A stretch of 64,000 nt of DNA, taken from assembly GCA_004376375.1 (NCBI GenBank), contig SOJX01000023.1, positions 36,013-100,012 of the forward strand, given 5' to 3'. The translations under genes and the position numbers were made by a program. Shown in pieces: positions 1 through 54,159 of this stretch. The number at the start of each line of letters is the position of its first letter. Within the stretch, counting starts at the first letter, position 1. This DNA is from Planctomycetota bacterium. Its GTDB lineage: Bacteria > Planctomycetota > E44-bin39. The notes under the pieces were generated by a model that was not told the origin of the DNA, made no database searches, and saw only the letters and a program-made list of their open reading frames with translations.

Positions 1-220
1 GTGATTTCCATCTTTACTCCCTAATATTTCCCTCTTCCCTCAACTCCTCCCCCATCATTTCAATTTTCGATTAACGATTCTCGAATTTCGATTTTTTGCC
101 TGACTCTGCTTTGGAATTATCGCGCCGCAAGCGGCGCCTGCGGTCGACAGACAGGAATGTCTGTCCCACGATCTTATTATTTCTTTTTCCCGGTACTCGG
201 TACTCGGTACTTCTTATTCC

Positions 221-442
221 CTATTTCCGTTTATATATATTCAATCCGATTTTTATTTCTTCGTTCTCGGGGAGGGAAACGTTCCCCGAGGTCGTGGCGA
301 TAATCGTGGTCTTGCCGGATTTGGACGGCCCGAAATCCTTGGCCAGGTCAACCGTGATCGTGAGGATGTCTCCCTCGATTTTCATTTCTACATTCTTCAT
401 GGTTTGCTTCCCCTTATAAAAAGGCCTGATTGCATTGCCCAT
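221..442 (-). CDS. small hypothetical protein (73 aa)
   Basis: Intact ORF with a non-repetitive, hydrophilic sequence (MKIEGDILTITVDL...GPSKSGKTTIIATTSG). I do not recognise a family. The start could instead be an internal Met at residue 15 or 20. Confidence 0.3.
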   Translation of the reverse strand: MGNAIRPFYKGKQTMKNVEMKIEGDILTITVDLAKDFGPSKSGKTTIIATTSGNVSLPENEEIKIGLNIYKRK

Positions 443-515
443 ATTGTACCCTGAAACACCGGGAGTGCAAGAAGAAGGGACAAGGTAATAAGGGATAAGG
501 TAATATGGTCCGAGA

Positions 516-746
516 CTAGGTTGTTTTGAGTCGCTGCATGGGGGTGCGTCTGCCCATTCTGGTGCCGAGCTTGAGCTGCCAGACGCGGCGCAGGTTCATC
601 ATGTCGCGGCGGCCGGCCATGGCCCACGCGCTGGAGGTCGCGGTGTGGCTTGCGCCGTTGCCGCCGGTGAATCCGGTCTGTTCCGTACTCAGGTATGCAT
701 TTATCGCAGAGACAATAGCTGCAATCTTTTTCGAATCAATATCCAT
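516..746 (-). CDS. small hypothetical protein (76 aa)
   Basis: ORF begins MDIDSKKIAAIVSAINAYL. It is bracketed by inverted heptamer arrays (TAAGGGATAAGG at about 475-500, CCTTATTCCCTTATT at about 860-905). Coding status is uncertain in this high-GC context. Confidence 0.25.
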   Translation of the reverse strand: MDIDSKKIAAIVSAINAYLSTEQTGFTGGNGASHTATSSAWAMAGRRDMMNLRRVWQLKLGTRMGRRTPMQRLKTT

Positions 747-888
747 TTTGCCTCTTTGCTTTTAAAACACAAGCGGCTCATGCCGCTCTCAGTGTTTTTT
801 TGCTTACAGAATGTTAACCCATGGCTCGAGTTTTGTCAAGGTTTTTCTGCGCAGGATTGTTCCCTTTGTTCCTTATTCCCTTATTCCC

Positions 889-3066
889 TTATTTCCTTAT
901 TTCCTTGCACGAGCGGTAGATGAATCGAATTTCCTCAATCTTCCACGTGCCCGGTCCAGGGGGCAGATCGAGCCACAGGCTGTCCGCGATGCCGCGCTGA
1001 AAAACTGACTCGACCGGCTCTGAAAAGCGCCCGCTTCCCCCGGATTTATCAATGGAAACCAGGATATCTGAAAGCCTCATCCGCACGCCACGGACGCCCG
1101 GAACTTTCCCGATACCTCTCAGCCTGATACGCACGGGGAAACTCTCGTCAGGTTTCATGCGTAGGGGCAAGGCATGCCTTGCCCCTACAGACAATTCAAT
1201 CTCAACTTTCCACAAGCCGCAGAGCGGGACCGGCCGGTCCAGGAGCAAAGCCGTGCCGCCGCGGCCCGCGCGAAAAACGCCGGGGGAAACTATCTCGACA
1301 TCATGGCTCCGCGGTGAAAACTCTTCACCGGAAACGGTAACGGTTTCGTCGGCGCCGGCATACGCCTTCGCGGCCTCCGGGGTAACGTCTTCAAGCGTCA
1401 TCATGTCCGGATCGTACGCAATAAGGTGTGCGCCGTTCCCGAAGCGCGCGCAATCGTTTTGAAAATCTCCCGGCACGTGTGCGGAACCGGGAAAAAACGT
1501 CCATACATTTGCAGACATGGGAAAACCCGCGTGCGTAACCAGCATCGTCCTGAACCCGACCGCGAACGCCATCGCGCCGTCGACGTGCGGCGGGATATAG
1601 AGAAAATAGTAGCTGCCCGCGGCCGGCCCGGACTCCTTTACCAGCTTCCGCGCTTCACTCTCCAGCGATTTGCAGTGCATGCCCGCTTTCGTCCAGGGCG
1701 TAGTATTCAACTGGAGCATAACGCTCCACGCCAGCACAAGAAACAGTACGGCTGCTTTTCCGGGCGCACCCCGCCTTGCGAGTGCGGCCAGCGCCAGTGC
1801 AAGAATAATGCTGACCCCGAGCGTCGGCATATAGACGTACCTGGCGCAGCTCTGATAGTCGAGGTCCCTCAAGAGATGGAACACGGGCAGGAAGCTGAAC
1901 AGTGTTGCCGCGCCTGCAAAAACCATCAACCGCCAGCGGCGTCTGCGAAGGCAGAGAATTATTCCGAAACCGATAATCCCCGCGCAGATCGCCGAAAGCA
2001 ATATCGCAATAACGGGAATGCTTTCGCCGTACATCGCACGGTTTACCGGCGCCAGCCATGCGCCGAAAATATACCTCGGGTCGGCAAGCGCCCTTTTCAG
2101 CATCGTTATATGTCTTCCGGCGCTCGGGGGAATTGTCCTGTACGCGACAAGTCCCCCCAGGACACAGCATCTGATAATAAAAATGGTAATCACCGTAATC
2201 GAGCCGGCAAACCCAAGCGCCAGCCGCCGCCTGAAAACCTTTTTATTCAACGCCGCGCAAGCGCGGCCGCTAACATCACATGCCGGCAGGAGGATTACCA
2301 GCAGCAGTATGAGCGGCAGGGCCGCAAACCCGTTCTCTTTCGTCATCGGTGCCGTGCACAAAAAGGCCGCGCTGAGGACACACCGCCACCAGCCGCCGTG
2401 CCGCAGATAATTCAGACCGAAAATGAGCGCCAGCAGCGTAAACATCACGGTCATCTGATCGTGTATGCAGGAAGGCCACGCCACGGTCCCGACCGACGCG
2501 GGGTAAAGCAGGAAAAGCAGCCCGGCCAGCGCGGCCTCGATATTCAGGCGGAAAGCTCTCTTCATAAACAGGAATAGAAGCATGGCGCAGAGCGCATGAA
2601 CGACCAGGCTCGTCAGGTGGAATATCACCGGCGTAAAACCGAAAAGGCTGACCATGCAGTACCACTCGAGCCACGCGACGGGACGCCAGTACCCGACCAG
2701 AACCTGCTGCGAAAAAAAATACCCGACGCCCCGGGCACGGTGAACCGCCACGAAATTCTGCACATAGTCGTCGCAGAGGAAGCCGATTCCCAGCGTGCGG
2801 GAAAAAAGCAGAAGCGTTATCACGAAAAATACGGCGCCGACGACGGGAGCGCTAAGTCGGCGCGTCTCGCCCGGCAGCCGTCGTGACTCTTCCGGCATGC
2901 CGCTGCAAAGCGACAGGGCGATTCCAATCACAGCGACAGCAAGGCCCGGATAGTAATTAATCACATATTTCAGAAACCCCGGCAGAGCGGGAAGCTCGTT
3001 CCGGAAGAAACAGGAGACCGAGACGATAACAAACCCGAGAGCCGTGAGCGCGCACCCGGCATACAT
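889..3066 (-). CDS. polytopic membrane protein, GT-C-fold glycosyltransferase-like (YfhO/PMT-like), with a C-terminal extracytoplasmic domain
   Basis: At least 10 predicted TM helices, then a roughly 250-aa soluble C-terminal domain. The track ORF extends to 3603 but overlaps lspA, so the start is taken at the in-frame ATG at 3066 (residue 180 of the track ORF). The stop lies inside a CCTTATT tandem array. Two palindromic repeat copies sit in frame at 2246-2274 and about 1150-1185. Confidence 0.55.
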   Translation of the reverse strand: MYAGCALTALGFVIVSVSCFFRNELPALPGFLKYVINYYPGLAVAVIGIALSLCSGMPEESRRLPGETRRLSAPVVGAVFFVITLLLFSRTLGIGFLCDDYVQNFVAVHRARGVGYFFSQQVLVGYWRPVAWLEWYCMVSLFGFTPVIFHLTSLVVHALCAMLLFLFMKRAFRLNIEAALAGLLFLLYPASVGTVAWPSCIHDQMTVMFTLLALIFGLNYLRHGGWWRCVLSAAFLCTAPMTKENGFAALPLILLLVILLPACDVSGRACAALNKKVFRRRLALGFAGSITVITIFIIRCCVLGGLVAYRTIPPSAGRHITMLKRALADPRYIFGAWLAPVNRAMYGESIPVIAILLSAICAGIIGFGIILCLRRRRWRLMVFAGAATLFSFLPVFHLLRDLDYQSCARYVYMPTLGVSIILALALAALARRGAPGKAAVLFLVLAWSVMLQLNTTPWTKAGMHCKSLESEARKLVKESGPAAGSYYFLYIPPHVDGAMAFAVGFRTMLVTHAGFPMSANVWTFFPGSAHVPGDFQNDCARFGNGAHLIAYDPDMMTLEDVTPEAAKAYAGADETVTVSGEEFSPRSHDVEIVSPGVFRAGRGGTALLLDRPVPLCGLWKVEIELSVGARHALPLRMKPDESFPVRIRLRGIGKVPGVRGVRMRLSDILVSIDKSGGSGRFSEPVESVFQRGIADSLWLDLPPGPGTWKIEEIRFIYRSCKEIRK
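2246..2274. repeat. REP-like element copy located in frame inside the GT-C-like membrane protein gene
   Basis: TTCAACGCCGCGCAAGCGCGGCCGCTAAC on the plus strand encodes VSGRACAAL in the minus-strand CDS. Confidence 0.7.
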
Positions 3067-5904: not shown

Positions 5905-6724
5905 CGGAAACATCGTCATAAGCTTCGAGAACGCGTACAAAACGCTTTCCGGGCGCAATGTGCTCGACGGCATGACGTTCGACGTCAGGCGCGGCGAGAC
6001 GTTCGTCATCATCGGACCTTCCGGGATGGGGAAATCGGTCACGCTCAAGCACATGGTCGGCCTGATGCGGCCGGACGACGGCGAAGTCATTATCAGCGAC
6101 GAAGGCGAAGGCGGGCGGGTGAGATACGACGTTTCCCATCTGAAACCAATCCAGCTCGAGCGGCTGCGCGCAATCTTCGGTTACCTTTTCCAGGACGGCG
6201 CCCTCCTCGCCTCGCTCACGGTAGGTGAAAACGTCGCGCTGCCTTTATTCGAGAGGCGATTGCACGTCTTCCGCGAAAAGTACGGCCGCAGAAACGCTGA
6301 AAATAAAATCTGGGAGCGGGTCAGGGAAAAGCTCGGCATGGTCGACATGGTGCACGCCATCGACAACCTGCCGGCCGAGCTCTCGGGCGGTATGAGGAAA
6401 CGCGCGGGACTCGCCCGCGCCATCATACACGAGCCGAAGATAATCCTTTACGACGAGCCGACAAGCGGACTCGACCCCGTGATGGGCACGAACATCAACC
6501 GGCTGATACGACACCTCCAGGAAAAGCTCGGTGTAACAAGCCTGGTCGTCACGCACGATATCGACAGCGCATACTACGTCGGAGACCGCATCGCCATGAT
6601 TAACAGGGGACGCATGGAGCAGATCGGAACGCCGGATGAAATAAAAAACACGACCAATCCCGTCGTAAGACAGTTTATCGAGGGGAATATCGAAGGCCCG
6701 CTTACCGCTGGAAGAAAGCACTAA
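5894..6724 (+). CDS. mlaF: ABC transporter ATP-binding protein, MlaF family
   Basis: Walker A GPSGMGKS, signature LSGGMRKR, Walker B ILYDEPTSGLD. Overlaps the mlaE stop. Confidence 0.9.
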   Translation: MDANGNIVISFENAYKTLSGRNVLDGMTFDVRRGETFVIIGPSGMGKSVTLKHMVGLMRPDDGEVIISDEGEGGRVRYDVSHLKPIQLERLRAIFGYLFQDGALLASLTVGENVALPLFERRLHVFREKYGRRNAENKIWERVREKLGMVDMVHAIDNLPAELSGGMRKRAGLARAIIHEPKIILYDEPTSGLDPVMGTNINRLIRHLQEKLGVTSLVVTHDIDSAYYVGDRIAMINRGRMEQIGTPDEIKNTTNPVVRQFIEGNIEGPLTAGRKH

Positions 6725-6763
6725 AAAAAGAAACAGGGAAACAAGAAAACAGGGGAATAAGTA

Positions 6764-7147
6764 GTGGGGAAAAGTTTTGAAGATCTTGAAGTATGGAAAC
6801 TGGCAAGGAAATTACGGGTGGACATCTATGACATTACGGAGAGCTTTCCATCACGCGAAAAGTATTCTCTTGTGAGTCAAATGCGACGGGCTGTACTCTC
6901 TGTTCCGGGCAATATAGCGGAAGGATACGGCAGATATCACTATAAGGAAAACATTCAGATGTGCAGGATTGCACGAGGCTCTTTGAACGAGTTGATTGAT
7001 TATTTATTCGCATCTGTGGATACAAAATACATTACTCAGGCGGTTTTCGAAACTCTTTACGCACAGGCAAGGGAAGTGGAAAAGGTTCTGAACGGATATA
7101 TAAAGTATTTGCAGAAACAGGCCGGCAAGGAAAAAGAGAAAGAATAA
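6764..7147 (+). CDS. four-helix-bundle protein (TIGR02436, 23S rRNA intervening-sequence protein family)
   Basis: MGKSFEDLEVWKLARKL...FPSREKYSLVSQMRRAVLSVPGNIAEG is characteristic of the family. Inserted between mlaF and mlaD and flanked by inverted AACAAGG/CCTTGTT tandem arms (6725-6760 and 7150-7200). Confidence 0.8.
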   Translation: MGKSFEDLEVWKLARKLRVDIYDITESFPSREKYSLVSQMRRAVLSVPGNIAEGYGRYHYKENIQMCRIARGSLNELIDYLFASVDTKYITQAVFETLYAQAREVEKVLNGYIKYLQKQAGKEKEKE

Positions 7148-7206
7148 GTTCTTTACCTGTTTCCTTGTTGTCTTGTTCCCTTGTTACCTGTTTGAGGACT
7201 ATTATC

Positions 7207-9051: not shown

Positions 9052-9097
9052 AACGCGTCAAACGTCGAACGTCCAACGTCAAACGTAATATTAAATT

Positions 9098-9130
9098 GTA
9101 GGGGCGGGTCTCAGACCCGCCCAATTCTTT
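9098..9130. terminator. GC-rich hairpin between convergent mlaD and lipoprotein genes (putative bidirectional terminator)
   Basis: GGGGCGGGTC-TCA-GACCCGCC stem-loop followed by AATTCTTT. Confidence 0.5.
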
Positions 9131-9145
9131 AACCTTATTCCCTTA

Positions 9146-10189
9146 TCAACTTGTTTCCTTATCCCCTTTTTCGACCGGCGGTTTTTCTTCTTCTTCCGAT
9201 TCGGATTCTTCTTCTACTTTTTCGGGGTCAATACGAAACTCATATAATGCTTTCCTTGCCGCCCGCCTTACACTGCTGTTACTATCTTCAAAATATGCCT
9301 GCTTCAGAGGTTCAATAGCCTTTTTATCACCAGTTGCGCTCAGGCAGTGTGCAGCTTCCCTGCGTACGCCTCCTGCCGGATCGTTCAGTAAAGCATAAAT
9401 TAGAGTCTTCATGTATTTCCTGCGATTCTTCCGGGTATTCTCCCAGAGCATTTCTTCACGCTTTCCAGGGTCTTGTTCATTTTTAAACTCATTCAGCAAC
9501 CTTTCAACTTCATCTTCATATCTTTTCTTCCGGGCTATATCCGTAGCTTCGTCATCTTGTTTAATGTCCAAACCGAACCAGCCACTTAAAAAGTCGGCCA
9601 TTTCAACCAGGCTGAGACCGAGTTCTATTCCTATTCCCACGCTTGCATGGACCGTCAGGTCCAGAAACCTGTCACTGTCTTCTGACCTCCAGTAATCACC
9701 TACCGTTCCCCATAAATCAGTGCTTACATCCAATCCGAGTATACCGCAATTACGCACTACCCATTTTCCATCCCAATCGACAATTTCAACACCGCTGGAG
9801 AACGGAAGGCAACATATTATTACCGTACCCTCAATCACTTCACCTAAGCCATCAAAGCTTGGAGTGTTGGTCGTTGTTGGAAAAGCACTGCTCTTCTCAA
9901 GTGCAAGGGAAGGACCCACTATATTAATAACAGGCAAGCCCAGGACAATAACTTTCTCGTCAACAAAATCGCGGCCAATAAACCCGATTCTTCGCTCCCA
10001 ACTCGCGCCGGCGGAGACATAAAACACGAGGCCCGATGTTCCAGCCGAAACGCCGTACCCATATCCGGCCTTTACCGTAAACATATCCACAAAATCCAGA
10101 CCGCGGTCTTTCAAATATGTCCCCAGCGACGCGCAGCCGGAAAAGGAAACAACAAACAGGAGGAGTAATGGAAAGATAAATCGTAACAT
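9146..10189 (-). CDS. lipoprotein with C-terminal HEAT (PBS-lyase-like) repeats and acidic tail
   Basis: Signal peptide with lipobox FSGC at the chosen ATG (10189). HEAT-like repeats (DPAGGVRREAAHCLSATGD, NSSVRRAARKAL). The track ORF extends upstream through a REP palindrome, so the shorter start is preferred. Confidence 0.6.
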   Translation of the reverse strand: MLRFIFPLLLLFVVSFSGCASLGTYLKDRGLDFVDMFTVKAGYGYGVSAGTSGLVFYVSAGASWERRIGFIGRDFVDEKVIVLGLPVINIVGPSLALEKSSAFPTTTNTPSFDGLGEVIEGTVIICCLPFSSGVEIVDWDGKWVVRNCGILGLDVSTDLWGTVGDYWRSEDSDRFLDLTVHASVGIGIELGLSLVEMADFLSGWFGLDIKQDDEATDIARKKRYEDEVERLLNEFKNEQDPGKREEMLWENTRKNRRKYMKTLIYALLNDPAGGVRREAAHCLSATGDKKAIEPLKQAYFEDSNSSVRRAARKALYEFRIDPEKVEEESESEEEEKPPVEKGDKETS

Positions 10190-10271: not shown

Positions 10272-10441
10272 ACTGATTTCAATCAGATTACTTACATTCT
10301 ATGGCCGAATAACAATATTGCAATAAGAACATTCAACCGCCTGTCTTCCGAACCTCTTAACTTCTGAACTTCAACACTTCAGCACTTCAGCACTTCTTAA
10401 CCCCGGCACCCCAGCACCCCAGCACTCCTCCAAATTTCCCC

Positions 10442-12123: not shown

Positions 12124-14760
12124 ATGCGGGTTCGCGAGTTCGCCAAAGAATTCAACGTCACGCCGAAAGAGATCATCGCGCTTCTCGAAGCTGACGGTAT
12201 TACCGGCAAAGTTCCGGCAAGCTCGATGCCGGAAGATTCCATAAAACCCATTCGCGAGAAGGTCACCTCACCCGATTACGCCCCCCTCGTAGAACCCAGG
12301 AAAAGCCGCTCGCGTTCCAGGAAAGCAAAAAAGCCCGAAGGCCCCGCCACCCTGGAGCTATTCGACGAGGACGAGCCGCCGCCTCCTCCGCCGCCCAAAC
12401 CGAAAAAGAAAAAACCGAAAAAAGAAAAGAAAAAACCCGCCGCTGCGGCGACGGCGGTTGCTGAAGCGCCGCCCGGTAAGAAAACAGTAAGTGCCGAGCC
12501 GGGGAAAGCAGCGGCTGCGGCAGGAACAGTCGAAGCGCCGCCCGGGGAAGCGGCGGCTGAAGCCGCAAAAGCTGACGTTGCGACCGTAAAGAAAGTTGAG
12601 AAACAAAAGAAGAAAACCAAAAAGAAACCGAAGACCGTCGAGCGGGACCTGATGCCCGAGCGCGTTATTCCGACGATAGTTTTTCGCCCGCCCAGGCCCG
12701 AGAAACCGGTTGAAGAAAAACCGAAGCGCAAGAAAAAGGACAAGGCCATAGATAAAAGCGCTGAAAAGATAGAAACGCACCGGGTCGCCCGCATCCCGGA
12801 TTTCAAGCAGGGACCGCGGGAAAGCACGGAAAAAACCTCAGCGCCCGCAAAGGGGCGCCGGCGCGAACGCGAGCGCTTCTCCCGCGCACAGATTGCCGAC
12901 CGGCACGACCGGGGCCGTGGCCCGAGGCGAAGACAGAAGTTCGTGATGAAGAGAAGCGCGCCCGTTATCGAATTCAAGCGGCCCGAAGAACTTGAAATAT
13001 CTCTCCCGCTTACGCTGAAAGACCTCTGCCCCAAGATCGGCATCAAGGCGAACGAGATAATACGCGACTACATGATGCAGGGCATGTTCATGACAATCAA
13101 CGACTATCTCGACGAGCTTCAAGTTCTCGAGATAGGCGAGAAATACGGCGTCGACATAAACATTACCAAGGCCCGTGACGAAGAAGACGCGCTTGCCGAG
13201 TACCTGAAAAGCTTTACACGCGACCCGGCAAACAAAATTCCCCGCAACCCCATCATCACGCTGCTCGGTCACGTCGACCACGGCAAGACAACCCTGCTCG
13301 AACGCTTTCTCGACGTCACAGGCCTGGCAGCCGCGGAGGCCGGCGGGATTACGCAGCACATCTCCGCTTTTTATCTTGAACACAGCGAGGGCGATATCAC
13401 ATTCGTCGACACGCCCGGTCACGCCGCTTTCTCGGAAATGCGCGCCCGAGGCGCAAACGTTACCGACCTCGTCGTGCTCGTGGTCGCCGTGGACGACGGC
13501 GTCATGGAGCAAACCAAGGAAGCCATCGCGCACGCGAGAGAAGCCAATGTCCCGATAATAGTCGCGCTCAACAAGGTAGATAAGGCGAATGCAAACGTCA
13601 TGCGCACAAAGCAGCAGCTCGCCGGTCTCGGTCTTTCTCCGCCGGACTGGGGCGGCAATACGGAAATGATAGAAGTCTCGGCTTTGAAGGGGGGGGACGA
13701 AATCAAGACTTTGCTTGAGACTATCGTGCTTGAAACACAGATCATGGAGCTCACAGCCGACCCGACAATCCCCGCGGTCGGCACCGTGCTCGATGCGCAC
13801 CTCGACAGCGAGGTCGGCGTCGTGGCGTCCGTGCTGATAAGCGAGGGAACACTCCACCGCAGCGACATCGCGCTTGCCGGACCGGGTTTCGGAAAGGTCC
13901 GCGCAATGATGGACGTAGGCGGGAAGCCGATTGAGGAAGCAGGACCTTCAATGCCCGCGCGGATGCTCGGACTTTCGGCCGTGCCGTCCGCCGGCGATCG
14001 TCTTAATGTCTGCCCCAACCTCGAAACCGCGAAAAGGACTGCCGAAAACAGGCAAAAGCGGGCGCGCGAAAGCCAGCTGGCCAAGCGCAAGAGGCATATA
14101 ACGCTGGAAGGCCTTTTCGGCGCCATCGAGGCCGGTAAAATCGAGGAACTCAACCTCGTCCTCAAGGCGGACGTCCAGGGCTCGCTCGAGGTGCTCACAA
14201 AAGAGTTCAGCGAGTTGTCCACCGATGAAGTCCGCGTGCGGATAATTCATTCCGGCGTCGGCGGCATCAACCATGCCGACGTCGCGCTCGCCGATGCCTC
14301 GAACGCAATCGTAATCGGCTTCCACGTCGTGCCGGACGACGCGGCCCGCGGCTACTCGGAAGAGCACGGCGTTGAAATGCGTCTTTACCAGGTCATCTAC
14401 CACGCGACGAGCGAACTGAAAGACGCTCTCGAAGGCCTGCTCAAACCGGAAATAGAGGAGGTCGTGGCCGGCCACATCGAAATCCGCCAGGTCTTCCAAG
14501 CCTCTAAAATCGGAAACATCGCCGGCTGCTACGTCAAGGACGGCAAGGTCGCGCGCAACCACCGCGTCCGCCTCATCCGCGACTCGGTGATAATCTACGA
14601 CGGTGAAATCCAGACGCTCAGGCGCTTCAAGGATGACGTGAAAGAAGTGCAGACCGGCTACGAGTGCGGCCTGAAAATAAAGAACTACGACGACATCAAA
14701 ACCAACGACATCATCGAAAGCTATTATACACGCGAAATCGCCCGCACGATCGAAGTCTAA
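12124..14760 (+). CDS. infB: translation initiation factor IF-2
   Basis: G-domain motifs GHVDHGKTTLL, DTPGH and NKVD. Low-complexity Pro/Lys-rich N-terminal region. Confidence 0.95.
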   Translation: MRVREFAKEFNVTPKEIIALLEADGITGKVPASSMPEDSIKPIREKVTSPDYAPLVEPRKSRSRSRKAKKPEGPATLELFDEDEPPPPPPPKPKKKKPKKEKKKPAAAATAVAEAPPGKKTVSAEPGKAAAAAGTVEAPPGEAAAEAAKADVATVKKVEKQKKKTKKKPKTVERDLMPERVIPTIVFRPPRPEKPVEEKPKRKKKDKAIDKSAEKIETHRVARIPDFKQGPRESTEKTSAPAKGRRRERERFSRAQIADRHDRGRGPRRRQKFVMKRSAPVIEFKRPEELEISLPLTLKDLCPKIGIKANEIIRDYMMQGMFMTINDYLDELQVLEIGEKYGVDINITKARDEEDALAEYLKSFTRDPANKIPRNPIITLLGHVDHGKTTLLERFLDVTGLAAAEAGGITQHISAFYLEHSEGDITFVDTPGHAAFSEMRARGANVTDLVVLVVAVDDGVMEQTKEAIAHAREANVPIIVALNKVDKANANVMRTKQQLAGLGLSPPDWGGNTEMIEVSALKGGDEIKTLLETIVLETQIMELTADPTIPAVGTVLDAHLDSEVGVVASVLISEGTLHRSDIALAGPGFGKVRAMMDVGGKPIEEAGPSMPARMLGLSAVPSAGDRLNVCPNLETAKRTAENRQKRARESQLAKRKRHITLEGLFGAIEAGKIEELNLVLKADVQGSLEVLTKEFSELSTDEVRVRIIHSGVGGINHADVALADASNAIVIGFHVVPDDAARGYSEEHGVEMRLYQVIYHATSELKDALEGLLKPEIEEVVAGHIEIRQVFQASKIGNIAGCYVKDGKVARNHRVRLIRDSVIIYDGEIQTLRRFKDDVKEVQTGYECGLKIKNYDDIKTNDIIESYYTREIARTIEV

Positions 14761-14866
14761 AGAAGTACCAAGTACCGAGTACCGGGTACCGAGTGAAGAA
14801 TACCGTGATTATATTCTACTCGATACTCGGTACTCGGTACTTGGTACTTGGTACTTGGTACTTCTT
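14761..14866. repeat. about 100-nt imperfect hairpin built from GGTACTC/GAGTACC heptamer arrays, between infB and the DUF503 gene
   Basis: Left arm GAAGTACCAAGTACCGAGTACCGGGTACCGAGTGAAGAATA. Right arm TATTCTACTCGATACTCGGTACTCGGTACTTGGTACTTGGTACTTGGTACTTC. The right arm overlaps the DUF503 RBS and start. Confidence 0.85.
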
Positions 14867-14867
14867 C

Positions 14868-15234: not shown

Positions 15235-15237
15235 CCC

Positions 15238-38820: not shown

Positions 38821-38918
38821 TTTCTCTCCGAAAGCCTTGTTTTATTTTCGCCTTGTCTCCTTGTCTCCTTGTCAACTTGTCTGAGCGCTCAACACATTAT
38901 CGTCCAAACAGGCAGAAC

Positions 38919-40370: not shown

Positions 40371-40374
40371 CTCC

Positions 40375-40470
40375 GGTTATTCGGTTCTTCGGTTACTCGG
40401 TTCTTCGGTTCCTCGGTTATTCGGTTATCCGGTTCTTCGGTTCTTCGGTTCTTCGGTTTTATTTCTTAAG
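40375..40470. repeat. tandem array of about twelve CGGTT(C/A)TT octamers between dapA and pdxJ
   Basis: CGGTTATTCGGTTCTTCGGTTACTCGGTTCTTCGG and so on. Followed by GCGCAGCAAGCTGCGC palindrome, CACTTCAGCACTTCAAC and CATCCTTCATACTTCAT arrays up to 40600. Confidence 0.85.
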
Positions 40471-40587
40471 AAACGCGCAGCAAGCTGCGCCGCTATATAT
40501 ATTATTAAATTATTCCCTCTTAACTTCAGCACTTCAACACCTCAGCACTTCAACACTTCTTAACTTTCATCCTTCATACTTCATCCT

Positions 40588-41322
40588 TCATACTTTCTTC
40601 TCGAATTTATCCAGGAGTTCGCGCATCTCGCGCACGGCCGGGCCGATGCCCGTGAAAATCGCGCGCGCGATAATCGCGAACCCGATGTTGACTTCCTCGA
40701 GCTCGGGAATCGCCGCCACCGGGCCGATGTTATGGTAATCAAGCCCGTGACCGGCGATAACGGCCAGGCCATTTTTCGCGGCAATCTGCGAGCCGAGAAT
40801 CAGGTCGGCCAGCGCTTGTTCCCGCGCAGTGCCGCGGGCGTTGCAGTATATTCCGGTGTGAAGCTCGACGGCCTGCGCGCCGACCTTTGCCGAAGCCTCG
40901 ATCTGCTCCGGCACGGGGTCGATGAACAGCGACACGAAAATCCCGCTGTCCCGAAGCCGCCCGGCCACGGCCTGCACTTTGTCTGCCGAGCCCGCGACGT
41001 CGAGACCGCCTTCGGTCGTCACCTCTTCGCGCCGCTCGGGGACGAGCGTGCATTGATAAGGTTTCACCTCGCATGCGATATCGACGATTTCATCCCACGT
41101 CGCCATTTCAAGGTTGAGGTGCGTCTTCACGGTTTCGCTCATCAGGCGCACGTCGCGGTCGTTGATATGTCGTCGGTCCTCGCGCAGGTGAATAGTTATC
41201 CCGTCGGCACCGTTCATCTCGCAGACGGCCGCGGCCGCCACGGGGTCGGGAAACGGCTCACGCCTCGCCTGCCGCACGGTTGCGACATGGTCTACATTAA
41301 CACCAAGACGAATCATTTTCAC
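40588..41322 (-). CDS. pdxJ: pyridoxine 5-prime-phosphate synthase
   Basis: PdxJ N-terminal signature [15 protein letters not shown]. Confidence 0.95.
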
Positions 41323-43359: not shown

Positions 43360-43674
43360 ACGTGCATTTCCGGCCCGTTCGGCGGCATGGTAGCACGGTC
43401 CCGCAAAAGCGGCAAGGGGAAAATAGGGTACGGAGCATCAATCGCGTAAGTTCAGACACGGCAATGGGAAGACACGGTGACAAGGAGACACGGAGAAAAG
43501 GAGACACGGAGAAAAAAGATATATTGACGGAAGGACCGAAAGACCGAAGGACCAAAGGACCAATAGACCACTTCACAAAAATGAAAAAAATTCTCGAATC
43601 CGCGTTTGAATCGGTTACAATACCCACTGTAAGGAGTACCCAGCCTGGAAGAATCTTCACCTGAGGGGGATAAC

Positions 43675-44232: not shown

Positions 44233-45197
44233 TGAAAATCCTTATCGCCGGCGCGTACGACAACGTGCCCCACACGACCGTGAAATTCATGGAAAAGGCT
44301 TTCAGAAGCCTCGGGCACGACGTCGAGATTTTCGATTTCCGCAGGATAAGGAAAGAGCGCGGCGGCTCGGAGATGGAATCGCAAATGCTGGCGACGGTCC
44401 GCGAAACAGAACCGGACACCATGATTCTCATGAAGGGCGAAGACATCAACTTGCGTACTATTATAGCAATAGGAGAACACACGCACGTCTCGCTCAGGTA
44501 TATGGATTCGCCGCTCCCGCGCTGGCTGAGGAAGCTCGCCGCCGCATGCGATTCGACTTTTATCACCGCCGGCGGGCTTGTCGCTGAATTCGAGAAGGCC
44601 GGCGTGAAAAACGTATTCCATCTCTGGGAGGGCGTCGACCCCGAGGTCCACAGGCACTGGGAAACGGATACAGATGATTTCGAATGCGACGTCGCGTTCG
44701 TGGGCGTGAACAAGGCCGGGCGTGACGCGCTTCTCTCCACCGTGATCGAGACCGGCGCGGACGTCGCCGTATACGGCCGCAAATGGCCCGCGGGCTTCCC
44801 GGTCAGAGGCGAGGGAATATATCTGGACGATTTTGCAAAACTCTGCAGCAGGGCGAAAATCGTTCTCGGCATGAACGACAACAACTCTATCGAGAATTAT
44901 TTCTCCGACCGCACGTTCCAGATCCCGGCCTGCCGCGGCTTTCACATTACCAGCCGCGTGCCGGGCATGGAAAACTGGTTCACCGACGGCGGACACCTGG
45001 TATGCTTCGACATAGGGCGCGGACGCGGTAAAAAAAAGTACGCCGACGCGGCGGATAAGGTAAAATACTGGCTCGACCGGCCGGACGAGCGGGTCCGTAT
45101 AGCCGCCGCCGGACAGAAATGGGTCTACGAGCGCTACACCTGGAAAAAAGTGTGCGCCGGGATGACGGGAAAGATAGAAGCTCTGATTTCCTGTTAG
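44232..45197 (+). CDS. glycosyltransferase-like protein (CgeB/DUF3880-like)
   Basis: Soluble GT-B-like layout. Translationally coupled to the upstream acetyltransferase (TAATG overlap). Confidence 0.5.
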   Translation: MKILIAGAYDNVPHTTVKFMEKAFRSLGHDVEIFDFRRIRKERGGSEMESQMLATVRETEPDTMILMKGEDINLRTIIAIGEHTHVSLRYMDSPLPRWLRKLAAACDSTFITAGGLVAEFEKAGVKNVFHLWEGVDPEVHRHWETDTDDFECDVAFVGVNKAGRDALLSTVIETGADVAVYGRKWPAGFPVRGEGIYLDDFAKLCSRAKIVLGMNDNNSIENYFSDRTFQIPACRGFHITSRVPGMENWFTDGGHLVCFDIGRGRGKKKYADAADKVKYWLDRPDERVRIAAAGQKWVYERYTWKKVCAGMTGKIEALISC

Positions 45198-45405
45198 CGG
45201 CCGCGCTTGCGCGGCGCTGAATAAAAAAAGGAAAACAAGGGAACAAGAAAACAAGGAAACAAGGAAGAAAGGAATAAGGAAATGGTAGGACAGACATTCC
45301 TGTCTGTCCATAAGATAACGCGCGAAGCTCCTTAACCCTTGTTGCCTTGTCAACCTGTTACCTTGTCACTTCCCCAGTCAACGCGCCGCAAGCGGCGCCG
45401 CTAAC
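45193..45405. repeat. composite nested palindromic element with no gene inside
   Basis: GTTAGCGGCCGCGCTTGCGCGGCGCTGAA (45193-45221) and its inverted copy (45378-45405) bracket the AACAAGG array (45225-45285), the GGACAGACATTCCTGTCTGTCC palindrome (45289-45310), TAACGCGCGAAGCTC (45316-45330) and the CCTTGTT array (45335-45370). Confidence 0.85.
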
Positions 45406-49118: not shown

Positions 49119-49708
49119 TCTATTACGCCCGCAAGCTCGGCGTGTACATTATCATGCTCGTCCTGCTCGCGCTTGCGGTTTTCCAGACGCCGCGCATCGA
49201 CAGCTTCATCGTCGGCGCGGTACTGGCCGCCGTCGGGCTTGCCCTGCGCGTGTGGGCGTGCGGACACCTTTATAAAAACGAAAAACTCGCCTGCACGGGA
49301 CCGTACGCGCACCTGAAGCACCCGCTTTACCTGGGAACTTTTTTCATCGTCTTCGGCCTGCTCTCGCCGATGTTTTTCCATTTCGAAATGACTGCCGACA
49401 ACTTCTTCAAGTTTCCAACCTTCTACCTGGCGATTTTCTGCATCCTGGTTCTTATTATCGTCTACCTGCCCCGTAAGGCGCGCGACGAGCATGAGCGGCT
49501 TGTCAAGCGGTTCGGTGAGCCCTACGTCAAGTGGGACGAAAACGTGCCCAACTACTTCCCCCGCCTGCGCGGTTACGACATGGGCGACAAGGCGCGCTTC
49601 TCGTTCTCACAGATGTTTGTCAACAGCGAGCACTTGACCGTAGCCGCCGTCACGGTCGGATTTATCGTTATTGCCTTCCGCTGGTGGCAAGCACTTTTTA
49701 AGGGATAA
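49097..49708 (+). CDS. isoprenylcysteine carboxyl methyltransferase (ICMT/PEMT) family membrane methyltransferase
   Basis: Multi-TM protein with the C-terminal ICMT-like motif region (HLYKNEKLACTGPYAHLKHPLYLG). Confidence 0.65.
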   Translation: MAHGTKVIYYARKLGVYIIMLVLLALAVFQTPRIDSFIVGAVLAAVGLALRVWACGHLYKNEKLACTGPYAHLKHPLYLGTFFIVFGLLSPMFFHFEMTADNFFKFPTFYLAIFCILVLIIVYLPRKARDEHERLVKRFGEPYVKWDENVPNYFPRLRGYDMGDKARFSFSQMFVNSEHLTVAAVTVGFIVIAFRWWQALFKG

Positions 49709-49888
49709 GGGATAGGGGATAAGGGATAAGGGACAAGTAATAACGAGCTTCGCGCGTTATTAAACAGAAATTCTTCCATATATACACATTCCTGAATTGC
49801 CAAAACAGATACCCGCTACTGAGATTAGGTATTTTATCGGGTATTATATGCCGTTATCGCATTTTTTAGGCAATTATTCATTTTCCAT

Positions 49889-51945: not shown

Positions 51946-52025
51946 TCAGCCGATTATCCGGCATACAGTCTATGCAGAACTGAAGATTGGACTCAGATTA
52001 TGTTGTTATAAAAAGGAGAAGTGTT

Positions 52026-54017
52026 GTGAAAGAAGGAAAAAGGGAAATTGAAACCAACGCTCTCAGTCAATGTATTCAAAACCGGCTTGGATCGTCGGGT
52101 ATATTCTTTTTCTCTCTCGGGCTCCATGGTTTTCTGATCCTCATTGCCACGGGAATCACTCTCTTTCTGGTTGAAAAGGAAAAAGACATAACACTGACGT
52201 TCAAACGCGAAGCCAGAGAAGAGCAATATGACCCAGAGATCGCGCGCTGGATTTTCAAAACGCCGAGAATCCTCGCAAACCGAATAATTGAAAAACCCAT
52301 ATTAATTTTCGAAGAAGAAGTCGAAATTTCAAGGGACATTACGCGAGGAACAAGTTTCGACAGTCTGGCAAATAAAAACATTAACGCCAGGTCAATTATT
52401 GACGCCTATGGAATGGGAGGAAAAGCAGCCGGCGTTTACGGCCAGCGCTGGGGTAAAGGAGGCGTTATATTATGCGAAGGAGGGTCTCCCGGCAGCTGCG
52501 CATGCTGCATAGGCGGTTGCACGGGTTCACTCGCGCATCCTGAAGACGAAGGGCGAAGCGCCATATTCTTTCTCGACAGCGGCGAAAACCCGTTTATCGA
52601 TACCAGTTGGGACCACCTCTCCACTTTCGCTATAGACGTCGACACTGCCTCATACACGATGGCGAGAAGCTATATTGAAAAAGGCGAACTCCCACCCAAG
52701 AAATCCATCCGCATTGAAGAGTTCATTAACTACATGAACTATGAATACACTTCTCCCTGGAGCGACGTGATAGCGATCCACCTCGAGGCCGCGCCTTCGA
52801 AATTCGGCAGGGAAGACGCGCACAAGCTGATGCGAGTCGCCGTAAAAGGGCTGGAGGCGAATATGGCTGACCGCCGGAACGCTGTTCTCACATATGTTAT
52901 TGACATTTCCGGCTCAATGTCCAGCGCAAACCGCCTGCCGTTAGTAAAGAAATCGCTCAAGCTGCTTCTTGAGCAGTTGACGGACGGCGACAAGGTCGGA
53001 ATTATCGTATACAGTGACGATGCAAAAGTCGTCACCGAACCGCTGCCGATAGCGGAACGCGAGAAGCTAATCAAAACCATCGACAGCCTCGAGACTGAAG
53101 GGTCTACCAACGTAGAGGCTGGGTTGATGCTTGGTTATGAAATGGCGGACAGGCATTTCCGGAAACATGCAATAAACCGCATTATTCTGTGCTCCGACGG
53201 CATCGCCAACACGGGGGAAACGTCTGCGGAAAAAATCCTCCAAAAGGTGAAAACCTACAAGGAGAAAGGCATCTATATTTCAACAATAGGTTTTGGCATC
53301 GATCATAACGACGATCTGATGGAAAAACTGGCTGACAAGGCAGACGGTGTTTACGCGTATATCGATACACCGGACGAGGCAACACGCCTTTTCGTTAACA
53401 ATACAATGGGCATTATGGGCGTCCTCGCGAAGGACATGAAAGTGCAGGTGGACTTCAATCCCGACGTTGTCGACTCTTACCGCCTGCTCGGTTACGAGAA
53501 CCGGAAGATCGCGGACAAGGATTTCAGGAACGATAAAGTCGACGCGGGCGAGATCGGGCCCGGGCATTCCGTTACCGCGCTCTACGAGCTGAAGCTGCAT
53601 GACGACGTTGCGGAAGGCATCGTCGCCACCGTTTTCGTCCGCTACAAAGACCCCGAATACCAGGATGAGGTAAAGGAAATCAAGCAGAGTTTTCCGCTTG
53701 CGAGCATAAGGGAGACATTCGAAGACGCCTCGGCCGATTTCCGCCTCGCCGCGGCGACCGCCGAGCTCGCCGAGGTTCTGAAGGACAGCTTCTTCGCGCG
53801 GGAATCCGATCTCGAGCCTGTGGTGGAGCTTACCGAATACCTTGCACACGAGATGTACGACCGGGAAGAAGTCAAGGAGCTTGCCGGGTTGGTAAAGAAA
53901 GCAAGGAATATCCGGCAGAAGACCATGCAAAAGCGCGTCGCTCTTGAGAGAAGCGAAGACAACGTCAGCAGAATACCGCGCGACAAAAGCGCGGTCATAG
54001 TCGGCCTGCCGAGATAA
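52026..54017 (+). CDS. von Willebrand factor A domain protein, YfbK-like, tandem paralog
   Basis: MIDAS DISGSMS. The C-terminal roughly 175 codons are nearly identical at the DNA level to the upstream paralog (53448-53773 matches 51375-51700). GTG start at 52026. Confidence 0.8.
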   Translation: MKEGKREIETNALSQCIQNRLGSSGIFFFSLGLHGFLILIATGITLFLVEKEKDITLTFKREAREEQYDPEIARWIFKTPRILANRIIEKPILIFEEEVEISRDITRGTSFDSLANKNINARSIIDAYGMGGKAAGVYGQRWGKGGVILCEGGSPGSCACCIGGCTGSLAHPEDEGRSAIFFLDSGENPFIDTSWDHLSTFAIDVDTASYTMARSYIEKGELPPKKSIRIEEFINYMNYEYTSPWSDVIAIHLEAAPSKFGREDAHKLMRVAVKGLEANMADRRNAVLTYVIDISGSMSSANRLPLVKKSLKLLLEQLTDGDKVGIIVYSDDAKVVTEPLPIAEREKLIKTIDSLETEGSTNVEAGLMLGYEMADRHFRKHAINRIILCSDGIANTGETSAEKILQKVKTYKEKGIYISTIGFGIDHNDDLMEKLADKADGVYAYIDTPDEATRLFVNNTMGIMGVLAKDMKVQVDFNPDVVDSYRLLGYENRKIADKDFRNDKVDAGEIGPGHSVTALYELKLHDDVAEGIVATVFVRYKDPEYQDEVKEIKQSFPLASIRETFEDASADFRLAAATAELAEVLKDSFFARESDLEPVVELTEYLAHEMYDREEVKELAGLVKKARNIRQKTMQKRVALERSEDNVSRIPRDKSAVIVGLPR

Positions 54018-54159
54018 AGTATGAAGTATAAAGTATGAAGGATGAAAACAAGAAATACTGAAGTCATTTTGACTTCGGATTGCGGATTGAGAATTAATGT
54101 CAACAGGGGCGCGGCACGCCGCGCCCCTGCAATCCTATTTGTCAATTAATGGACAGCAG

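Follow-up and report, generated by a model that had tools for sequence, protein, structure and literature searches.

Tandem heptamer repeats in the spacers of bacterial genomes have been known for decades, and those of the cyanobacterial STRR type have units such as CCCCAGT, TTGGTCA and CAACAGT. Intervening sequences (IVSs) of 23S rRNA that contain an open reading frame (ORF) occur in Leptospira, Xanthomonas and Brucella as well as in Coxiella, shorter rRNA IVSs without an ORF exist too, and the sporadic distribution of these insertions suggests horizontal spread. In the Coxiella burnetii IVS, a 28-bp stem has the S23p gene in its loop, tandem GACAGAT heptamers are present at the 5' end in strain-dependent numbers, and the first of these heptamers is the site of RNase III cleavage (PMC4990558); the family member of X. 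campestris is a homopentamer (as cited in PMC4990558). Geobacter metallireducens has 24 + 21 + 8 opposite-strand pairs of variably spaced sites, in which each site consists of 3-5 octa- or heptanucleotides in tandem. The pairs are intergenic and intercistronic (proB-proA, nifD-nifK), and none were identified in G. sulfurreducens (PMC2700814); classes 1-3 were read as DNA-binding sites of a global regulator (Aklujkar et al. 2009, PMC2700814). TAACTGA direct repeats are found in Beggiatoaceae, Cyanobacteria and Bacteroidetes, with 169 direct sets, one inverted set and a single dominant unit in BOGUAY (PMC4679880). Hence, the initial annotation of the DNA studied here, which knew of no described repeat class with this architecture, was overstated on this point, as the paired sites of G. 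metallireducens, the cyanobacterial STRR and the Coxiella 23S IVS are all precedents.

In a 64-kb stretch of the genome of an uncultured planctomycete (hereafter, the window), tandem arrays with 7-8-nt units fill the spacers between genes. TRF periods concentrate at 7 (23 rows), 8 (21 rows) and their doubles, and the previously listed repeat units were recovered at the places given for them. The window is 89% coding, yet 33 of its 37 period-7/8 arrays are located outside genes, 29 of them entirely and the others in part. When TRF was run on the spacers alone (6.3 kb), 32 period-7/8 arrays were obtained in 22 of 42 spacers vs. 0-1 array in each of 20 dinucleotide shuffles of the same spacers. 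The window-wide listing gives 24 array-bearing spacers out of 42 (57%), equivalent to 24 of the 38 up to position 54159, with no spacer array found from 54.2 to 64 kb; that is, about 60% of the spacers carry arrays and not almost every one, as had been claimed. The arrays do occupy a 5' UTR, intercistronic gaps and gaps between convergent genes, although the nusA-infB gap, named among these sites before, is free of them. Further arrays are present in 13.6 kb of flank, so the repeats are not confined to the window, and the term "genome-wide" is to be read against the ~78 kb covered here. About half of the arrays are paired as inverted copies, the rest being unpaired and at least 12 of them solitary, so "very often paired" holds for one half only. 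More than 10 unrelated unit sequences occur within the 64 kb. Besides the arrays, the window contains a distinct set of GC-rich repeats that are truly REP-like.

Seven of the paired structures are hairpins without an ORF, with stems of 17-47 bp and z scores of -4 to -11 (L014 denotes a syntenic relative):

14760..14867, + strand: family C hairpin (AGTACCG / GGTACTY) from the infB stop to the DUF503 start, based on folding, complementarity and the L014 gap.
15150..15235, + strand: family D hairpin (GGTCCTTC / GACCGAAG) in the DUF503-rbfA gap (dG -36.8, z -4.5).
16600..16665, + strand: family L hairpin (GTTAGTC / ACTAACC) in the 5' UTR of an acyl-CoA dehydrogenase gene (z -4.2).
22720..22835, + strand: family A hairpin (GAAGKAT / ATMCTTC) between convergent genes (z -4.1).
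28160..28312, unstranded: family H hairpin (TTATTCAG x8.4 / AACTGAAT x4.4; TRF, z -10.3), then a solitary ATAGCTG array, in a divergent spacer.
29820..30032, + strand: nested hairpin, with outer family A arms (29820-29860, 29978-30032) and an inner AATTGWR hairpin (29860-29942), based on folding.
45193..45405, + strand: triple nest, with outer GC-rich REP-like arms (45193-45220, 45378-45405), family B arms (45228-45282, 45334-45372) and an inner GGACAGACATTCCTGTCTGTCC hairpin (45288-45309), based on folding and REP copies.

All six hairpins named in the initial annotation fold as described there: for the five single ones and for the inner hairpin within the nested structure, dG ranges from -22 to -65 kcal/mol and z from -4.1 to -11.4 against dinucleotide shuffles. 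The most stable of these, at 14760, has a 45-bp stem (dG -65.5, z -11.4) with 46-nt arms that are 83% complementary, and at its base the infB stop codon faces the DUF503 start codon; the stems at 15150 and 16600 are 17-28 bp long. Hairpin loops also hold other elements. Against mononucleotide shuffles, the whole nested structure (29815-30040) reaches dG -72 and z -8.8 (inner hairpin, z -5.8), and the triple nest (45190-45410) dG -93 and z -8.1.

Arrays also bracket genes and a REP-like hairpin, and both genes of the PF05635/TIGR02436 four-helix-bundle family in the window lie within inverted octamer arrays:

470..908, - strand: complementary family B arrays (475-505 and 860-906, 77% over 22 nt) around a 76-aa PccX-like resident gene.
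6722..7195, + strand: gene cassette #1, GAAACAGG-type arm, four-helix-bundle gene (6764-7147; PF05635 E 2.6e-36, TIGR02436 E 6e-34), CCTGTTTC-type arm.
25231..25420, - strand: AGTGCTGG x8.4 array (TRF) and a degenerate partner (25386-25412; weak pairing) around a REP-like hairpin.
38345..38885, - strand: gene cassette #2, AGACAAGG-type arm, four-helix-bundle gene (38431-38820; PF05635 in the gene call of assembly L015, TIGR02436 E 3e-32), CCTTGTCG-type arm, as read on the - strand.

Cassette #1 is a 482-nt insertion between two Mla cistrons that extends exactly from the ABC ATPase stop to the MlaD start, where L014 has a gap of 4 nt, and its gene has a GC3 of 0.45 vs. ~0.72 in the adjoining genes. 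Cassette #2 has 49-nt arms, 76% complementary and 437 nt apart (38-49 nt and 74-76% for the cassettes overall), and its protein is 36% identical to that of cassette #1. The two cassettes and the seven ORF-less hairpins have arm families in common. Both proteins score below the cut-off of 80 bits for NF033474 (Avd), at 29 and 24 bits, and no RVT gene is present in the window, so the cassettes do not belong to a diversity-generating retroelement. That these two array pairs enclose PF05635 genes had been missed in the initial annotation. The other two bracketing pairs are of a different kind: the resident gene at 516-746 (a weak PccX match; the second array overlaps the stop codon at 889) is an ordinary one, which means that bracketing does not always imply cargo, and the whole region at 25231..25420 folds no better than shuffles (z 0.3).

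The association with PF05635 extends well beyond the window. An array of period 7-9 lies within 150 nt of 74 of the 77 metagenomic PF05635 loci (96%) vs. 41 of 184 control ORFs, such arrays are found on both sides in 49 of the 77 vs. 3 of the 184, and the flank inverted-repeat score is at least 12 in 57% of PF05635 loci compared to 2.7% of other ORFs and 2% of cross-locus pairs. Flank periodicity is 7 in 19 flanks, 8 in 14, 9 in four and 12 in a single one. Element orientation follows transcription with the C-poor arm first (in 54 PF05635 loci, the upstream arm has 5% C and the downstream arm 5% G). In the window, 12 of the 17 arrays located after stop codons, with genes of both strands represented, have more G than C on the sense strand; among the remaining five are two downstream arms belonging to a bracketed gene and a complete hairpin that TRF had merged. 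Similar flanks exist in MAGs labelled Methanosarcinales, Saprospiraceae and Calditrichaeota, and ORF-less tandem-armed hairpins in other PF05635-bearing contigs (e.g., L062, 487-564 and 4325-4494). Since arms like these bracket the four-helix-bundle gene here and in many other microbes, the repeats can be tied to the rRNA IVSs that are cut by RNase III.

Based on these patterns, the reading that we favor, and to which we would give about an even chance (probability ~0.5), is that the hairpins represent a lineage-specific bloom of IVS-like palindromic elements, with inverted 7-8-nt arrays as arms and with or without a PF05635 gene as cargo. The long form would carry the TIGR02436/PF05635 four-helix-bundle gene (S23p, Avd-like) and, when located in 23S rRNA, would be an ORF-containing IVS. 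Upon transcription, the arms would pair into 17-47 bp of dsRNA and fold the insert out of the message, and RNase III could then cut the stem, as in the Coxiella IVS, which would either split the operon transcript or release the mRNA of the cassette. Arm length would change by slipped-strand mispairing, and solitary arrays would either be half elements or provide the material from which hairpins form. The orientation rule might reflect selection against start codons that contain G and against SD-like sites, both immediately ahead of the following gene, and possibly also against an unpaired C-rich arm that could load Rho. By analogy with Coxiella, the elements are probably RNase III substrates, and a role of RNase III at the hairpins, as suggested previously, is plausible; we also infer that the elements are mobile. 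As counterpoints, about half of the arrays in the window lack a partner, and only 2 of the ~10 paired structures carry a PF05635 gene. It may also be that causation runs in reverse, with the PF05635 gene simply landing in hairpin loops.

The hairpins are real, non-random and lineage-specific. Six other assemblies (L001, L015 and L096-L099) show 0-10 mismatches each to the window and neither indels nor copy-number differences in the arrays, the only indel being one 42-nt unit in the NusA coding repeat; therefore, the arrays are not an assembly artefact, and slippage at them is not fast. L014, whose infB is 71% identical, has one array in 17.8 kb. Compared to it, the elements are insertions with precise boundaries in the spacers of otherwise tightly packed operons: the infB-DUF503 gap is 107 nt in the window vs. 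60 nt without repeats in L014, the DUF503-rbfA gap is 88 vs. 6 nt, and L014 has the promoter found upstream of the 16600 hairpin (TTGACA-N17-TAGAAT; 14242-14393 in L014) but not the hairpin itself. The junctions of cassette #1 and the 14760 hairpin show no visible target-site duplication, with L014 as the sole relative for comparison and the palindrome reaching the ends.

The initial annotation had argued instead for local expansion and not for transposition of a fixed element. In this explanation, slippage and template switching at a local low-complexity seed would have produced each hairpin where it now stands, with neither mobility nor a dedicated function, similar to microsatellites or STRR. 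Consistent with this view, unit numbers do differ between arms, as had been noted (TRF; 4.4 vs. 6.6 at 14764/14817 and 8.4 vs. 4.4 at 28162/28236), the number of units on each of the two arms is not the same at the orthologous loci L070 and L072, and the Pfam calls of the 64 kb (27941-32114 and 41485-42162 untyped) include neither a transposase nor a reverse transcriptase or RAYT gene. Further, the statement that arms match each other better than same-family arrays elsewhere is correct for the five unit families with a single paired locus, but it fails for the two families with several paired loci, in which the match of an arm to arms at other loci equals or exceeds that to its own partner. 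For family A, arm plus loop at 22723-22777 and the reverse complement of 29954-30008 share 94.5% identity across 55 nt, and for family B, the left arm of the 45231 hairpin pairs with the right arm of cassette #1 (7150-7195) at 91%, compared to 80% and 74%, respectively, with their own partners. Such cross-locus matches indicate that copies have spread and have not only expanded locally, and the loop sequence common to copies of one family indicates that whole elements were copied to new sites. Thus, local copy-number change does occur, but its use as an argument against transposition does not hold. Recurrence of each unit at 3-7 loci, the precise insertion boundaries and the near-universal link with one gene family across unrelated contigs are also unexpected from local slippage alone, and we consider this explanation unlikely. 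Overall, the earlier observation is partly confirmed and its interpretation partly supported.

A second alternative emerges from the solitary arrays, all detected by TRF:

191..211, - strand: family C array that follows the stop of a 73-aa gene and shares 96% identity with one arm of the 14761 hairpin.
9056..9172, unstranded: arrays of CGTCAAA (9056-9086) and of family B CCTTATTC (9133-9172; L014 ortholog at 8424-8454).
10359..10425, unstranded: ACTTCAGC and CACCCCAG arrays located before the nusA promoter and matching 40516-40564 at 92% across 49 nt.
15595..15636, + strand: family A array encoding the final residues and stop codon of RbfA.
21726..21758, + strand: GGTTATT x4.7 array, 5 nt past the OAD beta stop; position 21728 is one of the five inter-assembly differences.
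36329..36361, - strand: TAAGTTA-type array, 3 nt past the stop of an HTH-S24 gene.
40374..40595, - strand: three arrays between PdxJ and DHDPS, AAGAACCG x10.6, GCTGAAGT and family A over the PdxJ stop (units on the - strand).
43470..43570, + strand: two adjoining arrays (AGACACGG, GACCGAAG) upstream of a hexapeptide transferase gene.
49699..49743, + strand: family B TAAGGGA x5.6 array supplying the stop codon of an ICMT-like gene.
54014..54046, + strand: family A array supplying the stop codon of the second VWA gene.

Many of these lie at stop codons or directly before start codons. In line with the gene-end overlaps reported earlier, arrays overlap the stop codons of six genes and one abuts the DUF503 start. 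Accordingly placed arrays could be single-stranded RNA sites for a CsrA-, Csp-, S1-like or pentameric four-helix-bundle protein that tunes translation or stability, with hairpins as a by-product or sequestered state, a role of the kind that MacGregor proposed for the TAACTGA repeats (PMC4679880). Families A and B do provide GGA-containing runs in sense RNA (GAAGGAU, UAAGGGA, ACAAGGA), and the typical copy number of 4-6 is compatible with the homopentameric X. campestris protein (as cited in PMC4990558). However, several families lack GGA (GGTTATT, TAAGTTA, AGTACCG) and paired arms would conceal the sites, which makes this hypothesis an unlikely one as well.

Alternatively, the arrays might be DNA sites for a nucleoid-associated or global regulatory protein, with one protomer per 7-8-bp unit and opposite-strand pairs that loop or bend the DNA. 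The same idea was put forward for G. metallireducens, which has the same architecture and intergenic/intercistronic placement (PMC2700814), and deletion of heptamer repeats altered the activity of a recO promoter reporter in a Nostoc preprint (10.1101/2022.06.06.494920). Arrays of 4-6 units that stand alone are frequent, and stem mismatches in 54 cassettes comprise 72 G.U vs. 82 A.C in the sense RNA, i.e., G.U is no commoner and there is no sign of selection on RNA pairing itself, which counts against the IVS-like reading and fits a DNA-level feature. Yet the more than 10 unrelated units would require many proteins or a sequence-blind one, many arrays are inside transcribed operons, distant from promoters, and their orientation tracks transcription on both strands, for which a symmetric DNA site has no need; accordingly, we regard this possibility as rather improbable. 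Finally, that the hairpins are intrinsic terminators or attenuators is highly improbable even though stable stem-loops follow stop codons, since no T-run follows any of the six named hairpins, loops are AT-rich, stems are AT-rich and 17-47 bp long, several hairpins precede cistrons of a conserved operon (DUF503, rbfA) that they would sever from the promoter, and separate GC-rich terminator-like hairpins are present in the same spacers.

Returning to the IVS-like elements, it is intriguing to hypothesize, as a tentative and on balance doubtful extension, that pentameric PF05635/TIGR02436 proteins and inverted 7-9-nt arrays form one widespread, unnamed class of mobile elements of bacteria and some archaea, for which rRNA IVSs are only the best-known landing site. 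In such a case, ORF-less or half derivatives could explain STRR, the Beggiatoaceae TAACTGA repeats, the G. metallireducens sites and the Chloroflexus heptamer satellites, and the protein would recognize its own arms, one subunit per unit. What is new here is the location of the PF05635/TIGR02436 genes of the window within inverted octamer arrays, the array architecture itself having precedents, together with the side-by-side occurrence of heptamer-type arrays and the S23p/four-helix-bundle family in 96% of sampled loci. In addition, essential operons of a single genome contain forms with the gene as well as empty ones. Should this link be confirmed, it would offer an origin that can be tested for an entire set of orphan repeats, suggest what role a very common family of orphan proteins, related to Avd of DGRs (an accessory protein), may have, and imply that operon messages of some lineages are routinely interrupted by RNase III-type stems, with consequences for annotation, operon prediction and the fragmented assembly of such genomes.

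Among known systems, the elements resemble REP/BIME/REPIN and MITE-like repeats in being short, multicopy intergenic palindromes that are nested, clustered and tolerated in operons. REPs, however, have a fixed 20-40-nt sequence and a RAYT transposase elsewhere in the genome, whereas the arms here are periodic and variable in length. We therefore rejected REP/REPIN with RAYT: the arms are not fixed-sequence, and no Y1_Tnp or other transposase appears in the Pfam calls of most of the window. Likeness to the STRR/TAACTGA repeats is closer, with tandem 7-nt units in non-coding DNA (23 TRF rows of period 7, next to 21 of period 8) that often touch start or stop codons (PMC4679880; 10.1101/2022.06.06.494920), an orientation bias relative to genes, stops in all frames and a patchy phylogenetic distribution; those repeats differ in being mostly direct and unpaired, with no hairpin or cargo gene described. 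STRR proper was rejected, as the host is a Planctomycetota MAG and not a cyanobacterium, and the STRR units are absent among those found. The arrays share with the G. metallireducens sites the pairing on opposite strands, the 7-8-nt units, the intergenic location and the restriction to a lineage. The units of the latter (GTTGCTYN, TCTCCGTS, MTYCTGA) are different, so this is the same architecture and not the same sequence family, and those sites are often occupied by insertion sequences of the IS110 and IS481 families, with no link to a four-helix-bundle gene reported (PMC2700814).

Lastly, compared to 23S IVSs, the window elements lie in mRNA spacers and a 5' UTR and not in helix 25 or 45: no rRNA or other Rfam family was found in the window, so insertion into an rRNA helix does not apply, and none of 20 other PF05635 loci tested has an rRNA location. 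They also differ in the many copies, in the at least 10 unit families per 64 kb, in 8-nt units being as frequent as 7-nt ones and in the many solitary arrays; RNase III cleavage is known for the Coxiella IVS (PMC4990558) and argued here by analogy. Nonetheless, six of the seven hairpin stems exceed 20 bp, consistent with the ~20 bp or more of IVS stems, the PF05635 gene lies in the loop between terminal inverted repeats in both cassettes (6764-7147 and 38431-38820), as in 23S IVSs, and the seven ORF-less hairpins would correspond to the ORF-less IVSs.

The hairpins with tandem-repeat arms that the initial annotation reported in the spacers are real and unusual, but of a kind that is already known, if poorly understood. 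Our preferred reading, to which we assign a probability of about one half, is that they are IVS-like palindromes with tandem-repeat arms, with or without a PF05635 gene, which were inserted in the spacers of this lineage, can spread, and probably undergo RNase III cleavage once transcribed; their insertion, family relations and orientation, and the association with PF05635 across metagenomes, are direct observations. TRF returned 101 rows for the window, with 7 (23 rows) and 8 (21 rows) as the dominant periods, together with their doubles, and 33 of the 37 period-7/8 arrays are located at least partly outside genes. Spacers of at least 25 nt (42 spacers, 6.3 kb in total) contain 32 arrays, distributed over 22 of them, vs. 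none or one in each of 20 dinucleotide shuffles. The main hairpins gave the following z-scores against dinucleotide shuffles:

14760-14867: hairpin, z = -11.4
15150-15235: hairpin, z = -4.5
16600-16665: hairpin, z = -4.2
22720-22835: hairpin, z = -4.1
28160-28312: hairpin, z = -10.3
29820-30032: nested hairpin, z = -5.8 for its inner hairpin

The nested structures have dG values of -72 (29815-30040) and -93 kcal/mol (45190-45410). Arrays also continue beyond the window in the 13.6-kb flank (e.g., TCAGTTAT, 13.8 copies at 3024-3133 of contig L096), and an assembly artefact is rejected outright, since the same DNA in six other assemblies (JGI metagenome contig L001; L015, L096 and L098 of GCA_030588815.1; and L097 and L099, two Logan assemblies of SRR7716471) shows 0-10 substitutions each, with arrays identical in length and free of indels.

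Parts of the initial description were too broad. Rather than almost every spacer, about 57% carry arrays, with none between 54.2 and 64 kb, and the nusA-infB gap holds a GC-rich hairpin and no array. Paired inverted arms, said to be very frequent, do exist, although at least 12 arrays have no inverted partner. A search for arm-length polymorphism found none in the arrays of the seven same-population assemblies, whose sole length polymorphism is an in-frame 42-nt coding repeat (3.1 copies, 11685-11816) in the C-terminal region of NusA; L098 appears one unit longer, and L001 begins within this repeat (window 11745). JAUUWX010000082.1 ends (window 25339) about 40 nt from a AGTGCTGG array and a REP copy, and thus short-read assemblies seem to be broken by such repeats.

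The gene map (gene calls and Pfam hits of these records, plus our own scans) gives a coding share of 89% for the window, at 55% GC. It includes two lspA-like genes, MlaE-ABC-MlaD, NusA-InfB-DUF503-RbfA-QueE-like, an acyl-CoA dehydrogenase and decarboxylase cluster, a xanthine-dehydrogenase-like cluster, PdxJ, DHDPS and others. The gene calls and Pfam hits, which cover most of the window, include no transposase, reverse transcriptase or RAYT gene, and an Rfam search of the window gave no match. Tandem VWA/YfbK_C paralogues (49906-51945 and 51987-54017) share ~82% DNA identity over 1.4 kb. Just upstream of the nested hairpin at 29820-30032 lies a hypothetical 228-aa gene (29135-29821, plus strand) with paired CxxC motifs near its N-terminus, a lysine-rich AAAAG-type run (29420-29467), an 18-nt coding repeat (5.3 copies, 29615-29710) and a 15-nt Arg/Gly-rich repeat (29740-29805).

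Two cassettes, missed by the initial annotation, consist of inverted octamer arrays around a PF05635 / TIGR02436 gene:

6722-7195 (+): cassette #1; GAAACAGG-type arm 6724-6754, gene 6764-7147, complementary arm 7158-7189
38345-38885 (-): cassette #2; GACAAGGA-type arm 38350-38400, gene 38431-38820, CCTTGTCT arm 38851-38882

Both genes have low GC3 (0.45) and match PF05635 (23S rRNA intervening sequence protein) and TIGR02436 (four helix bundle protein) with E-values of 1e-32 to 1e-36. Cassette #1 is a 482-nt insertion that fits exactly between the stop codon of the Mla ABC ATPase gene and the MlaD start codon, two codons separated by 4 nt in the syntenic relative L014. The arms of this cassette form one family with those of an ORF-less hairpin (45231-45369), pairing across loci at 91%. 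A 76-aa gene at 516-746 was considered as a second kind of cargo and dropped, since it weakly matches PccX and adjoins carboxylase genes, that is, it is a resident gene.

The association extends well beyond this organism. An alignment of 27 homologues led to 80 metagenomic loci, 77 of which have both flanks and were counted. A period 7-9 array lies within 150 nt on either side in 74 of these 77 loci vs. 41 of 184 other ORFs of the same loci, and on both sides in 49 of 77 vs. 3 of 184. A gapless flank inverted-repeat score of at least 12 is reached by 57% of the PF05635 loci, compared to 2.7% of other ORFs and 2% of cross-locus pairs (54 or 44 of 77 loci, depending on which of two mismatch penalties is used). 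Strong periodicity is mostly 7 (19 flanks) or 8 (14), followed by 9 (4) and 12 (one flank), and unit sequences vary widely between loci (e.g., GGTGTGA, GTTAAGA, GGGTTGATT, CGGTTCTC). The same kind of flanks occurs in MAGs labelled Methanosarcinales, Saprospiraceae and Calditrichaeota, ORF-less tandem-armed hairpins accompany the gene on other contigs (e.g., L062, 487-564 and 4325-4494), and none of the 20 loci tested for context lies within rRNA. Unit number differs on both arms between the orthologous loci L070 and L072. The more alike two PF05635 proteins are, the more similar their arm k-mers tend to be (rho 0.32), which is no proof that the protein recognizes the repeats, since three of the four closest protein pairs are orthologous loci (L026/L035, L057/L074 and L070/L072). 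The 2.6-kb metagenome contig L017 (56% GC; positions of interest 29-65, 438-702 and 1379-1408) carries a PF05635 gene with 59% identity to that of cassette #1, along with window-type units (CACCCCAG, AAGGGAAA / TCCTTTT, AATAGGGG); by these likenesses it may come from a related organism.

Comparison with L014 reveals further insertions. An InfB search of genome contigs found best relatives of at most 48% identity, and L014, from the protein database, was the single useful relative; it is the only moderately close one on record (InfB 71% identical), has the gene order of the window from lspA to biotin carrier, and contains a single period-7 array in 17.8 kb. The infB-DUF503, DUF503-rbfA and rbfA-queE gaps measure 60, 6 and 41 nt in L014 vs. 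107, 88 and 87 nt in the window. The acyl-CoA dehydrogenase promoter (TTGACA-N17-TAGAAT) is common to both, and the 5' UTR of this gene holds a hairpin (16600-16665) in the window but not in L014. A family B array follows MlaD in both (window 9133-9172, L014 8424-8454), and hence at least one array is older than the split. The HEAT-repeat gene at 9146-10282 (minus strand, GC3 0.46), between MlaD and the nusA promoter, is missing in L014 and is flanked by non-complementary arrays, and is thus probably a separate insertion. Arrays supply the stop codon and last codons of resident genes (15595-15636, 49699-49743, 54014-54046, 40566-40595 and 860-906), and RbfA ends in ...EDEDKDEV in the window vs. 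...NTDNSEET in L014; such repeats thus alter the C-terminal ends of proteins.

The spacers also hold GC-rich, REP-like repeats (GTTAGCGGCGCCGCTTGCGCGGCGTTGA; GGACAGACATTCCTGTCTGTCC; TAACGCGCGAAGCTC; GGGCGGGTC..GACCCGCCC) that form a second set, unrelated to the tandem arrays. They are nested with the tandem-armed hairpins and have two copies inside genes; an ortholog of the GGGCGGGTC..GACCCGCCC type lies near 8380 in L014.

REP-like repeats in the window, by group
First: 2247-2274, 19511-19538, 25296-25323, 45193-45220, 45378-45405
Second: 145-166, 21890-21911, 23126-23147, 45288-45309
Third: 21863-21877, 45316-45330, 49745-49759
Fourth: 9102-9122, 21836-21856

One alternative is that originally favored, i.e., local expansion rather than transposition, on the grounds that the arms of a hairpin match each other better than same-family arrays elsewhere. 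This matching holds in five single-locus families but fails in the multi-locus families A (GAAGKAT, five loci) and B (AAGGGA / ACAAGG, seven loci), in which an arm resembles arms of other loci at least as closely as its own partner. Families C (AGTACCG) and D/E occur at two or three loci, and CAGCACYY at four. Further, an arm with its AT-rich loop (22723-22777) matches the reverse complement of 29954-30008 at 94.5% identity over 55 nt, and one element lies inside another at 29820-30032 and 45193-45405 (weakly so at 25231-25420). The shared arm and loop, foreign-arm matches and nesting argue that whole elements were copied and inserted into the loops of hairpins, with slippage acting in addition. 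Other candidates were discarded: a DGR is rejected since both PF05635 genes score under the cut-off of the DGR Avd model, CRISPR since the units are contiguous, without spacers, and terminators outright. On L102 (Calditrichaeota label), an RVT_1 gene (1-951) lies 1.5 kb upstream of a PF05635 gene (2501-2881) preceded by a GGGTTAAG-type array, a neighbourhood that may reflect either a DGR or chance.

The copied elements are also oriented. In the 54 cassettes, C makes up just 94 of 1755 bases of the upstream arm in gene sense, so that this arm is nearly C-free, as the downstream arm is nearly G-free, and the window agrees with this rule: 12 of the 17 arrays that start at a stop codon or at most 15 nt past it have G>C in gene sense, most of them being nearly C-free. 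The remaining five comprise two arms that lie downstream of a bracketed gene, one entry in which TRF merged a whole hairpin (with a C-free first arm), one tie and one true exception (CGTCAAA at 9056). Since the rule is seen on genes of both strands despite a cumulative GC skew that falls across most of the window, orientation follows transcription, not replication. On L101 (2260-3110, Saprospiraceae), a PF05635 gene lies within very long CAACTTAA arrays that exceed 25 units on either side, a GTTGAGT-type array standing between them, and the G-poor upstream arm of this gene is an exception. A filter might act in that a G-poor arm just before the next gene could hardly hold start codons or SD-like sites, and a C-rich arm, made second, would pair at once; this latter idea builds on the loading of Rho on unstructured C-rich RNA. 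Downstream arms have 0.8 vs. 7.1 ATG/GTG/TTG per 100 nt, a scarcity that follows from composition. A role of C-poor upstream arms in stopping all three reading frames is weakly supported (44% vs. 30% of arms). Stem mismatches in the 54 cassettes show no excess of G.U (72) over A.C (82), that is, no sign of RNA-helix selection, and comparing the MFE of the two strands gave no decisive difference in this respect.

Given precedents in Coxiella, Geobacter metallireducens and others, the architecture is not undescribed, as the initial annotation had it, although it is nameless. Outside the Coxiella IVS/rRNA, we found no literature link of PF05635 genes to tandem-repeat arms, most subscription journals being beyond reach. 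The closest mechanistic precedent is the Coxiella burnetii IVS, where S23p, of the PF05635 family, sits in the loop of a 28-bp stem, tandem GACAGAT heptamers stand in the 5' region, three or four of them depending on the strain, and RNase III cuts at the first of these repeats (PMC4990558). G. metallireducens has 24, 21 and 8 pairs of opposite-strand sites built from tandem octa- or heptanucleotides, located inside operons as well as between them, with none identified in G. sulfurreducens; these were read as regulator-binding sites and often adjoin IS110-family elements (PMC2700814, supplement 5). Alike in kind to the window elements are also the TAACTGA repeats of Beggiatoaceae (PMC4679880), the heptamer repeats of Nostoc (10.1101/2022.06.06.494920) and the heptamer satellite of Chloroflexus (PMC6749651).
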